DNA from: Escherichia coli
Lineage (GTDB): Bacteria; Pseudomonadota; Gammaproteobacteria; Enterobacterales; Enterobacteriaceae
Direction: 5' to 3' (one strand)
NCBI RefSeq assembly: GCF_003018255.1
Contig: NZ_CP027440.1
DNA length: 64,000 bases
Translations under genes and position numbers: made by a program
The notes under the pieces: generated by a model
What the model was told of the DNA's origin: nothing
The model's input: only the letters and a program-made list of their open reading frames with translations
The model's database searches: none
Shown here: piece by piece, positions 12,736 to 15,434 of the stretch
Position numbering within the stretch: position 1 is the first letter of the stretch
Layout: every line of letters starts with the position of its first letter

Positions 12736-13713
12736 ATGAGCGAAACGGCATCCTGGCAGCCGAGCGCATCCATTCCTAACTTATTAAAACGCGCGGCGAT
12801 TATGGCGGAGATCCGTCGTTTCTTTGCCGATCGTGGAGTGCTGGAGGTGGAGACGCCTTGTATGAGCCAGGCGACGGTAACCGATATTCATTTGGTCCCG
12901 TTTGAGACACGTTTCGTAGGCCCCGGGCATTCGCAGGGGATGAATCTCTGGTTAATGACCAGCCCGGAATACCATATGAAACGCCTGCTGGTTGCTGGTT
13001 GTGGGCCGGTATTCCAGCTGTGCCGCAGCTTCCGTAATGAAGAGATGGGGCGTTATCACAACCCTGAGTTCACTATGCTTGAGTGGTATCGACCGCACTA
13101 TGATATGTACCGGTTGATGAACGAGGTGGACGATCTCTTGCAACAGGTGCTGGACTGTCCGGCAGCAGAAAGCCTTTCTTATCAACAAGCTTTCTTGCGT
13201 TATCTGGAAATTGACCCACTCTCTGCCGACAAAACGCAACTGCGGGAAGTGGCAGCGAAACTGGATTTGAGCAACGTTGCCGATACTGAAGAAGACCGCG
13301 ACACGCTTCTACAATTGCTGTTTACCTTTGGCGTAGAGCCAAATATTGGCAAAGAAAAACCGACCTTTGTGTACCACTTTCCAGCCAGCCAGGCATCACT
13401 GGCGCAAATCAGTACCGAAGATCATCGGGTCGCTGAACGCTTTGAGGTTTATTATAAAGGTATTGAGCTGGCGAATGGTTTCCATGAATTGACGGATGCC
13501 CGTGAGCAGCAACAACGCTTTGAACAAGATAACCGTAAGCGCGCGGCGCGCGGTTTGCCGCAGCACCCCATTGACCAGAATCTGATTGAAGCCTTGAAAG
13601 TCGGTATGCCTGACTGTTCCGGCGTGGCATTAGGCGTTGATCGTCTGGTGATGTTGGCGCTGGGCGCGGAGACACTGGCTGAAGTCATCGCCTTTAGCGT
13701 TGACCGGGCATAA
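12736..13713 (+). CDS. epmA: EF-P lysine-lysyltransferase EpmA (PoxA/GenX)
   Basis: ORF track frame; start at internal ATG 12736 ([17 protein letters not shown]), 325 aa; class II aaRS-like. Confidence 0.93.
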
Positions 13714-13931
13714 TTCTGAAAAATTACTGAATTAACCGCGAAGAATGGCGTGATAAGCGCCATTCTGTAGCATATGTTTTCATTTTTCCGCTAAAGGCCA
13801 CAATTTAAGACTGGATATTTGATATCATCCAGGTATCAATTCTGTATTGGTTTTTACGCTGCCCGCTCAATGTTGGGCAGTGCAGTTCAGTGGGCGCGTT
13901 TTATACACGCGCTGAAATGAAGGATGTTTTC

Positions 13932-15434
13932 ATGCCTCACACGATAAAAAAGATGAGTCTGATAGGACTCATATTGATGATCTTTACTTCCGTATTTGGA
14001 TTTGCCAATAGCCCATCGGCTTATTACTTAATGGGTTATAGTGCGATTCCCTTTTATATATTTTCTGCATTGTTATTCTTTATTCCATTCGCCTTAATGA
14101 TGGCTGAAATGGGAGCTGCTTATCGCAAAGAAGAAGGCGGTATCTATTCCTGGATGAATAATAGTGTCGGACCACGTTTTGCCTTCATTGGTACGTTTAT
14201 GTGGTTTTCCTCTTATATCATCTGGATGGTGAGTACCTCCGCGAAAGTTTGGGTACCGTTCTCAACATTCCTCTATGGTAGCGACATGACCCAGCACTGG
14301 CGTATTGCCGGACTGGAGCCTACGCAGGTGGTTGGTCTGCTGGCAGTGGCATGGATGATTCTGGTCACCGTCGTTGCTTCAAAAGGGATTAATAAAATTG
14401 CCCGCATTACTGCGGTGGGCGGTATTGCAGTAATGTGTCTGAATTTAGTATTGCTGTTAGTAAGCATTACTATTTTGTTATTAAATGGTGGGCATTTCGC
14501 GCAGGATATTAATTTCCTTGCATCACCGAACCCAGGTTATCAGTCCGGTCTGGCAATGCTATCGTTTGTGGTATTTGCTATTTTTGCCTATGGTGGAATT
14601 GAAGCGGTTGGTGGTCTGGTCGATAAAACGGAAAATCCAGAAAAGAACTTTGCCAAAGGTATTGTTTTTGCCGCTATTGTTATTTCAATCGGTTATTCGC
14701 TGGCAATATTTTTATGGGGCGTCAGCACAAACTGGCAGCAGGTATTAAGTAATGGTTCCGTTAACCTCGGCAATATTACCTATGTGCTGATGAAGAGCCT
14801 CGGGGTGACGCTGGGTAACGCACTGCATTTGTCACCTGAAGCGTCATTGTCGCTGGGCGTATGGTTTGCGCGTATTACCGGACTTTCGATGTTCCTCGCT
14901 TATACCGGTGCGTTCTTTACGCTTTGCTATTCACCGCTGAAAGCCATCATCCAGGGGACGCCGAAAGCGTTGTGGCCGGAACCGATGACGCGCCTGAATG
15001 CGATGGGGATGCCGTCTATCGCCATGTGGATGCAGTGCGGGTTGGTTACTGTCTTCATCCTGCTGGTTTCGTTTGGTGGCGGTACCGCATCGGCGTTCTT
15101 TAACAAGCTGACGCTGATGGCGAACGTGTCTATGACGCTTCCTTACCTGTTCCTCGCGCTGGCTTTCCCATTCTTTAAAGCACGTCAGGATCTCGACAGA
15201 CCGTTTGTGATTTTCAAAACGCATATGTCGGCAATGATTGCAACAGTGGTTGTCGTACTGGTGGTGACATTTGCGAACGTCTTCACCATCATTCAACCTG
15301 TGGTTGAAGCTGGAGACTGGGACAGCACATTGTGGATGATTGGCGGCCCTGTCTTCTTCTCGCTGTTAGCGATGGCGATTTACCAGAACTATTGCAGTCG
15401 CATGGCGAACAAACCTGAGTTAGCTCTCGACTGA
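13932..15434 (+). CDS. yjeM: APC-family amino-acid transporter YjeM
   Basis: ORF track frame; start at ATG 13932 (MPHTIKKMSLIGLILM), 500 aa, polytopic membrane protein. Confidence 0.88.
   Translation: MPHTIKKMSLIGLILMIFTSVFGFANSPSAYYLMGYSAIPFYIFSALLFFIPFALMMAEMGAAYRKEEGGIYSWMNNSVGPRFAFIGTFMWFSSYIIWMVSTSAKVWVPFSTFLYGSDMTQHWRIAGLEPTQVVGLLAVAWMILVTVVASKGINKIARITAVGGIAVMCLNLVLLLVSITILLLNGGHFAQDINFLASPNPGYQSGLAMLSFVVFAIFAYGGIEAVGGLVDKTENPEKNFAKGIVFAAIVISIGYSLAIFLWGVSTNWQQVLSNGSVNLGNITYVLMKSLGVTLGNALHLSPEASLSLGVWFARITGLSMFLAYTGAFFTLCYSPLKAIIQGTPKALWPEPMTRLNAMGMPSIAMWMQCGLVTVFILLVSFGGGTASAFFNKLTLMANVSMTLPYLFLALAFPFFKARQDLDRPFVIFKTHMSAMIATVVVVLVVTFANVFTIIQPVVEAGDWDSTLWMIGGPVFFSLLAMAIYQNYCSRMANKPELALD

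Follow-up and report, generated by a model that had tools for sequence, protein, structure and literature searches.

The epmA–yjeM spacer of Escherichia coli: a probable extended −10 promoter and a predicted 5′ untranslated region with two covarying hairpins

What stands in front of yjeM, an Escherichia coli gene for a transporter of unassigned substrate and regulation that adjoins epmA in every enterobacterial genome examined, is the question raised here by a stretch of 64,000 nucleotides (nt) of E. coli DNA (RefSeq assembly GCF_003018255.1, contig NZ_CP027440.1; the window). The two genes are separated by a spacer of 218 nt (13714–13931), which is free of any RefSeq annotation, K-12 MG1655 included. 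A first-pass annotation, made by a model from the letters alone, had read 13768–13931 as a structured leader with three hairpins (here H1, H2 and H3, from 5′ to 3′) and possibly with a regulatory function. The comparison of orthologous spacers indicates that H2 and H3 are RNA structures preserved by selection in Escherichia, Citrobacter and Salmonella, and H2 also in Kluyvera; H1 is probably promoter DNA. The arrangement is that of an unannotated but ordinary promoter followed by a structured 5′ untranslated region (UTR), and nothing in the data points to a riboswitch or an attenuator. The elements on which the argument turns are the following.

13799..13802, + strand: CACA at predicted −36 to −33, a possible transcription-factor contact (A, C and A in 51 of 51 spacers, the first C in 50 of 51)
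13811..13832, + strand: H1, ctggat/atccag, an inverted repeat over the core promoter (arms 13811–13816 and 13827–13832), seen in the sequence
13818..13828, + strand: predicted extended −10 element of sigma-70 type, with T at −17, TG at −15/−14 (13820–13821) and the hexamer TATCAT (13823–13828), from column counts in 51 spacers
13835, + strand: predicted transcription start, an A placed from the motif, 7 nt past the −10 hexamer (K-12 NC_000913.3, 4383742)
13857..13882, + strand: H2, ctgccc/gggcag, a stem-loop of the 5′ UTR (core arms 13859–13864 and 13875–13880), from folding and covariation
13893..13913, + strand: H3, gcgcg-ttttataca-cgcgc, a stem-loop of 7 base pairs (bp) that stops 6 nt short of the Shine–Dalgarno sequence (core 13894–13898 and 13908–13912), from folding and covariation
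13920..13924, + strand: Shine–Dalgarno sequence (SD) of yjeM, AAGGA, with the ATG 7 nt further on, read from the sequence

Promoter positions are numbered with A13835 as +1, and K-12 coordinates (NC_000913.3) are obtained by adding 4,369,907 to those of the window. When genomes were scanned at one per species, epmA proved to lie directly upstream of yjeM at 50 enterobacterial loci, and 51 spacers, i.e. those of the window, of K-12 and of 49 others, were aligned; the GGA core of the SD is kept in all of them. Two narrower alignments were also used, namely A1, with the 29 full-length alignable spacers of Escherichia, Citrobacter, Salmonella and Kluyvera, and A2, a UTR alignment of 24 sequences of Escherichia, Citrobacter and Salmonella. 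Spacers of Enterobacter, Leclercia, Lelliottia, Superficieibacter, Huaxiibacter and others have a single block in common with those of the Escherichia type, and in them it lies much nearer to the yjeM ATG. For the z-scores, each stem was folded alone and compared with 200 shuffles. Within E. coli, a 501-nt query around the leader gave one match each in 5,425 of 5,426 complete genomes, and is 100% identical to strain RM14723.

All three stems of the first-pass annotation are present in the sequence, H1 and H2 where it had set them and H3 about 10 nt to the right, at 13894–13912 instead of 13883–13905; the end of its interval, 13931, is also correct, the yjeM ATG being at 13932. Its impression of more structure than a promoter needs holds for two of the three. 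Indeed, H2 (−15.7 kcal/mol) has a z-score of −2.95, with 2 of 200 shuffles as good, and H3 (−11.0 kcal/mol) one of −2.48, with 3 of 200, whereas H1 (−6.4 kcal/mol; z −1.02) is at chance level, 33 of the 200 shuffles folding as well. RNAalifold, run on the plain MAFFT alignment, recovered only H0, a hairpin at the end of epmA described below, and a stub of H1 of 4 bp with zero compensatory change; H2 and H3 were not seen by the program because insertions and deletions misalign both, and their pairs were therefore set by column and counted.

Counted in this way, H2 behaves as an RNA helix whose sequence drifts while its pairing is maintained. A hairpin is found at its place in all 29 sequences of A1 (−8.2 to −16.7 kcal/mol), with a mean z of −2.63 and 21 of the 29 below −2; in A2, seven of its 11 pairs have changed on both sides, and 85.6% of the cells are paired. 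The stem that reads CUGCCC/GGGCAG in the window is UGCCCACC/GGUGGGUA in E. coli E69, CCGCUCUC/GAGAGCGG in C. sedlakii and CUUGUC/GACAAG in Kluyvera, and E. albertii has the hairpin of E69, as CUGCCCAUC/GGUGGGUAG. H3 is present in 24 of 24 sequences of Escherichia, Citrobacter and Salmonella (−6.8 to −14.5 kcal/mol), and is weak or absent in Kluyvera; in the register common to all 24, four of eight pairs have changed on both sides, and within Escherichia one pair passes through GC, GU and AU, with K-12 showing an A.C intermediate. Over the whole of A2, both partners have changed in 11 of 25 pairs, and the share of paired cells is 85.8%, which drops to 29–48% when the 3′ partners are slid by one to three columns, and none of 500 shuffles matches the observed covariation score. 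Within E. coli, the H2–H3 segment (13845–13918) has two main alleles, that of the window (2,409 genomes) and that of K-12 (about 2,894 genomes), which differ at four of 74 nt, three in the stems of H2 and H3 and one in the H3 loop, with comparable folding: in the K-12 allele H2 is weaker (−9.9 kcal/mol) and H3 is re-paired at equal stability.

The covariation check on orthologous leaders that the first-pass annotation had proposed came out differently for H1. Across the 29 genomes of A1 none of its six pairs has changed on both sides, and the only variation consists of G-C to G-U and U-A to U-G changes and of mismatches. The absence of covariation, together with a position straddling the conserved −10 element, indicates that H1 is probably promoter DNA, not leader RNA, and that it probably lies upstream of the yjeM transcript start. 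The structured leader proposed at first is therefore reduced to H2 and H3, which covary and lie between the predicted start and the SD; a start downstream of the hairpins had been named in advance as evidence against it, and for H1 this is the probable situation.

The case for a promoter in this place rests on the block that is the most conserved of the spacer and the sole segment alignable in all genera. T −17 is found in 51 of 51 spacers, T −15 in 50, G −14 in 49, T −12 in 50, A −11 in 49 and T −7 again in 51, with positions −13 and −10 varying freely, and 47 of 51 genomes have TGnTAnnnT at this place of the alignment. Extended −10 promoters (TGn or TRTGn), of which galP1 is an example, form a class of sigma-70 promoters in which a TG one base upstream of the hexamer goes with T −12, A −11 and T −7, with a poor −35 element and with a start 6–8 nt past the hexamer. 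The block agrees with this class in having the TG one base upstream of the hexamer, the conserved T −12, A −11 and T −7, a T at −17 and no recognizable −35 hexamer, and differs from the TRTG form in that −16 is a pyrimidine and not a purine, and from the known promoters in that its start is predicted. A consensus scan reported no −35/−10 pair in E. coli, S. arizonae or C. braakii, and could not report a promoter of this kind because it demands a −35 hexamer. The block is therefore a probable extended −10 promoter of yjeM, as judged from conservation, with a sigma factor that we infer to be sigma-70; it would occupy 13799–13834, without a usable −35 hexamer, and transcription would begin at A13835, a column with A in 39 of 51 genomes (only suggestive), leaving H1 as an inverted repeat across the promoter that would not be part of the yjeM mRNA. 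Thus, only a part (13835–13931) of the interval first taken for the 5′ UTR is likely to be UTR. Indirect support for a promoter comes from the listing of yjeM as its own operon in RegulonDB (PMC4168707), from a plasmid clone of K-12 4,383,331–4,385,560, i.e. the spacer and yjeM, which works as a multicopy suppressor (PMC12003319), from a yjeM promoter fragment of strain UTI89 recovered as urine-induced (PMC5404293), and from the separate start of epmA, mapped at −25 by rapid amplification of 5′ cDNA ends (Mendoza-Vargas 2009).

Two further elements accompany the −10 region, namely the CACA listed above and a CTGG at 13811–13814 (−24 to −21), which is present in 45–50 of 51 genomes and in all genera. 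They are too distant from the −10 element to be a −35 hexamer and may, therefore, be contacts of a transcription factor; in having a conserved element that overlaps the −35 region, the yjeM promoter is like class II activator-dependent promoters. When set by eye against consensus sequences, the block gave no fit with those of sigma-54, sigma-E, CRP, FNR, DnaA, marbox, GAD-box, ARG-box, RcsB or IHF, CACA and CTGG in particular being unlike the CRP, FNR, sigma-54, sigma-E and DnaA patterns. The only resemblance noted, to an Lrp-like YAG-N9-CTR pattern, is left as a lead, and a search of the 64-kb window for CACA-N8-CTGG gave no informative second site.

The same nucleotides may be read in another way, with H1 (CTGGAT-N10-ATCCAG) as a DNA operator at which a dimeric factor, bound on the −10 region, represses yjeM, and with CACA and CTGG as part of the same or of a second site. 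In E. coli the repeat is a perfect 6+6 palindrome centred on the −10 region, CTGG is as widespread as stated and CC at −6/−5 is kept in 35–46 of 51 spacers; furthermore, yjeM is an amino-acid-type transporter gene, a class that is often under Lrp-type control. However, the palindrome decays outside Escherichia (G −3 in 32, A −4 in 24 and A −20 in 24 of 51), the window holds a single further match to CACA-N8-CTGG-N3-T, no more than chance would give, no factor was identified, and a literature search gave no chromatin immunoprecipitation or regulon paper naming yjeM. On balance, an operator in H1 is unlikely.

With the promoter fixed by its TG, the length of the leader can be followed across genera. 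The distance from TG to ATG is 111–113 nt in Escherichia (predicted leader of ~97 nt), 116–119 nt in most Citrobacter, Salmonella and Kluyvera (101–104 nt), 70–80 nt in Klebsiella, Pseudescherichia, Pseudocitrobacter and Enterobacteriaceae RIT691 and 89 (55–65 nt), and 40–42 nt in the Enterobacter group. There, in Enterobacter, Leclercia, Lelliottia, Superficieibacter and relatives, the promoter is kept, the leader measures about 26 nt and neither H2 nor H3 is present, from which it follows that the hairpins are not needed for basic expression of yjeM.

Can the conserved structure be a switch? If all three hairpins were transcribed as one regulatory leader, it could turn yjeM on or off in response to an amino acid, a protein or temperature, and such a view finds some ground in the conservation of H2 and H3 and in the folding of the whole 164-nt interval (13768–13931), which beats shuffles with a z of −3.2. 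It can also draw on the Citrobacter form of H3 (A2 columns 64–91, homologous to 13886–13913 of the window), in which the CGC of the 3′ strand can choose its partner from two neighbouring GCG triplets; the C. gillenii lineage has GUG for GCG in both of these 5′ triplets, matched by a single change of the 3′ CGC to CAC, so that both registers are kept. The marks of a known kind of switch were, however, not found. Rfam 15, scanned with permissive filters at E ≤ 10, which was a further check first proposed, yielded no relevant family, but only three spurious matches (E 2.6–6.6) that are far under the gathering scores and none of which is on the + strand of the leader. H2 and H3 are G+C-rich stem-loops, as are those of terminators, but no run of U follows H2 (tail UGCAGUUCAG) or H3 (tail GAAAUGAAGG), and a terminator scan of 13500–14200 was empty on the + strand, which bears out the earlier remark that none of the three stems has a T-tract; without a U-tract, H2 and H3 are neither terminators nor attenuators. 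No upstream open reading frame (uORF) is conserved. Loops and linkers of H2 and H3 are free to vary among the 24 sequences, where the invariant columns lie in the first 21 nt and in the SD, and no alternative pairing is conserved in the set. With, in addition, an H1 that does not covary and overlaps the conserved −10 element, and with leaders of the Enterobacter, Leclercia and Lelliottia group that lack the hairpins, the regulatory function suggested at first is not borne out, and a single leader of three switching hairpins is highly unlikely.

Other classes were rejected on specific grounds. A leader peptide would have to be the 16-codon open reading frame at 13870–13920, the sole ATG-initiated one in the leader, which is confined to the alleles of the window and of K-12; other E. 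coli, E. albertii and Citrobacter have lost either its frame or its start. A repetitive extragenic palindromic (REP) element or bacterial interspersed mosaic element (BIME) does not agree with a 74-nt H2–H3 segment whose median copy number over 5,425 E. coli genomes is one (blastn, word size 11, E ≤ 1). An RNA thermometer of the ROSE or fourU type was discarded with the SD (13920–13924) outside H3, which stops at 13913. Finally, reading the hairpins as parts of an antisense promoter or terminator was ruled out, as the minus strand has no conserved −10-like pattern and the hairpins have no U-run there. A terminator-like hairpin with a T-run (ATGAGTC...GACTCAT CTTTTTT) does occur on the minus strand at 13953–13972, over the first yjeM codons; the T-run is complementary to the Lys-Lys codons, and the number of such sites is not above shuffle expectation.

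The hairpins might instead serve as a docking platform for a regulator acting in trans, i.e. a small RNA (sRNA) dependent on Hfq or ProQ, or an RNA-binding protein. A conserved structure of free sequence would be suitable, as would the U-rich tract (13850–13855) directly 5′ of H2 and the strongly sequence-conserved first 17 nt of the predicted transcript, which could be a site for pairing or binding. These 17 nt coincide with a weak hairpin.

13835..13851, + strand: H1b, atcaat/attggt, at the predicted 5′ end, inside the conserved block GTATCAATYCTGTNTTG, from folding

H1b, which the first-pass annotation did not mention, has a folding energy of only −2.2 kcal/mol and none of its six pairs has changed on both sides, which indicates that sequence, not structure, is conserved at the predicted 5′ end; indeed, the block 13833–13851 (GTATCAATYCTGTNTTG), the H1b loop included, is invariant or nearly so in the 24 sequences of A2. 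Docking on H2/H3 is countered by the lack of a conserved loop motif (e.g. of a GGA in the loops for CsrA) and by the fact that yjeM and epmA are missing from the published 3′-end-mapping supplements that were searched, and we regard it as distinctly unlikely.

A last alternative concerns the SD itself. The conserved CAUCC at 13826–13830, if transcribed, could pair with GGAUG of the SD over a long range, H1, whose 3′ arm contains AUCC, acting as an anti-anti-SD and the hairpins of the inserted 70 nt keeping the partners close. The block is more complementary to the SD than shuffled blocks (−7.96 versus −5.06 kcal/mol); Enterobacter and Leclercia have a perfect complement of 7–8 bp (ACCAUCCG / CGGAUGGU) about 18 nt apart, and Klebsiella and Pseudescherichia pair CUAUCC with GGAUAG. 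Yet each block pairs no better with its own SD than with that of other species (permutation fraction 0.24), there is no covariation, and in Citrobacter AUCC is degraded and TGnTAnnnT retained. Since the block has no conserved promoter ahead of it, only read-through from epmA could supply an RNA with CAUCC, a further weight against an arrangement that we hold to be barely plausible. In six Enterobacter/Leclercia spacers, about 40 nt upstream of yjeM, the −10/discriminator ACCATCCG complements the ribosome-binding site CGGATGGT, and, if transcribed, this complement could sequester the SD. A 10-nt direct repeat, ATGTTTTCAT, is also seen at 13774–13783, upstream of the promoter, and at 13924–13933, across the yjeM start codon, the second copy having one mismatch in K-12; when the 164-nt interval is folded, the upstream copy lies in a region paired with the SD-containing segment (GAAAUGAAGGAUG). 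More generally, H2 and H3 could be a clade-specific cis-regulatory RNA of yjeM, with the two H3 registers or the CAUCC–SD pairing as the switch for a protein, an sRNA or a metabolite. The probability of this is small, and, if true, it would turn H2/H3 from a passive structure into an undescribed leader element.

The reading favoured here, with middling confidence, is that of a yjeM promoter followed by a 5′ UTR of ~97 nt (13835–13931) in which H2 and H3 are constitutive stabilizing or insulating hairpins, H1 being outside the mRNA. As pairing alone is conserved, with no constraint on loop or linker nucleotides and no U-tract, competing helix or uORF, the hairpins most likely act constitutively and independently of their sequence. 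They would shield a long leader from RNase E attack dependent on the 5′ end and from Rho loading, and would keep the ribosome-binding site free of pairing with G/C-rich parts of the leader; in this way they would set the stability and translatability of the yjeM mRNA.

Like known 5′ UTR hairpins that stabilize an mRNA or bar RNase E from it (5′ stem-loops of the ompA type and obstacles to RNase E scanning), those of yjeM are stable stem-loops between the 5′ end and the ribosome-binding site, with conserved pairing and without a terminator tail; the ompA-type element is, however, at the extreme 5′ end, and in yjeM the hairpin starting at the predicted +1 is the weak H1b and the strong ones begin at about +23 and +59, distances that depend on a 5′ end that is itself predicted. 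With the attenuators of amino-acid genes they share the occurrence of G+C-rich hairpins in the leader of an amino-acid-related gene, but not the U-tract, the conserved leader peptide or the antiterminator alternative, the sole terminator-like hairpin, H0, belonging to epmA. With riboswitches and other Rfam leaders they have in common a conserved, covarying secondary structure; unlike these, they are two independent simple hairpins that match no covariance model and have no conserved junction or loop nucleotides, and they are limited to one clade of Enterobacteriaceae and are absent from orthologous leaders elsewhere.

Several observations weigh against this reading in whole or in part. The stabilizing or insulating role is argued by elimination; H3 stands out from its shuffles only modestly when several species are considered (mean z about −1.6 to −1.75), and genera without H2/H3 apparently express yjeM all the same. 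As to the exclusion of H1 from the mRNA, its G-C to G-U and U-A to U-G changes would be tolerated in RNA, and transcripts reading through a weak epmA terminator, if it leaks, would contain it. As to the promoter, a clean TGnTAnnnT is missing in four of 51 genomes (Citrobacter MGH106, S. arizonae, S. diarizonae and Citrobacter 18056), and a sigma-70 promoter alone does not account for CACA and CTGG. Furthermore, no experimentally mapped yjeM start, nor a 3′ end of its transcript, was found in the supplements of E. coli transcript-mapping studies (Adams 2021, Kim 2012, Ettwiller 2016, Yan 2018, Mendoza-Vargas 2009), so that +1 at 13835 stays a prediction; that of Mendoza-Vargas 2009 gives only the epmA start mentioned above and a primer for b4156.

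What is new is the placing of a probable promoter and a predicted start for yjeM, together with two leader hairpins under selection in Escherichia, Salmonella and Citrobacter and dispensable elsewhere, which offer a starting point for work on this gene. A false riboswitch or attenuator lead is removed; the biological stakes are modest, this being the ordinary architecture of a gene front end.

The remaining features of the locus are the two genes and the hairpin that follows epmA.

12736..13713, + strand: epmA, coding for the EF-P (elongation factor P) beta-lysine ligase, the upstream neighbour; from the open reading frame, its translation and RefSeq annotation in E. coli records that are identical or nearly so
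13742..13766, + strand: H0, a hairpin right after the epmA stop codon, outside the interval first described; from folding and covariation
13932..15434, + strand: yjeM, coding for an APC-family transporter of the glutamate/GABA (γ-aminobutyrate) type; from the open reading frame and the RefSeq annotation

H0, the second hairpin that the first-pass annotation left unmentioned, is a strong one, with −16.0 kcal/mol, a z of −4.31 and none of 200 shuffles as good; over the 29 genomes its mean z is −6.25, six of its 10 pairs have changed on both sides and pairing holds in 97.6% of cells. The terminator scan picks it up in S. arizonae but in neither E. coli nor C. braakii. It is probably the intrinsic terminator of epmA; its U-tract is poor in E. 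coli (AUUCUGUAG), hence some read-through into the spacer is possible. Spacers of the Enterobacter type have a REP-like palindrome (GCCGGGTGGCGC...GCTTACCCGGC) in place of H0.

On the protein side, the N-terminus of YjeM, M-P/T/S-H/Q-T/S-I/L-K-K, is kept across genera. In each of the 50 enterobacterial genomes with sufficient flank, the two genes lie side by side in the same orientation, and this constancy raises the idea that the substrate of YjeM may be related to that of EpmA (lysine or beta-lysine). Along its full length, enterobacterial YjeM shares 58–68% identity with Firmicutes proteins (Listeria, Bacillus, Gottfriedia, Enterococcus and Vagococcus), whose genes have no neighbouring epmA; the identity is unusually high for phyla so distant and suggests horizontal transfer of the transporter gene.

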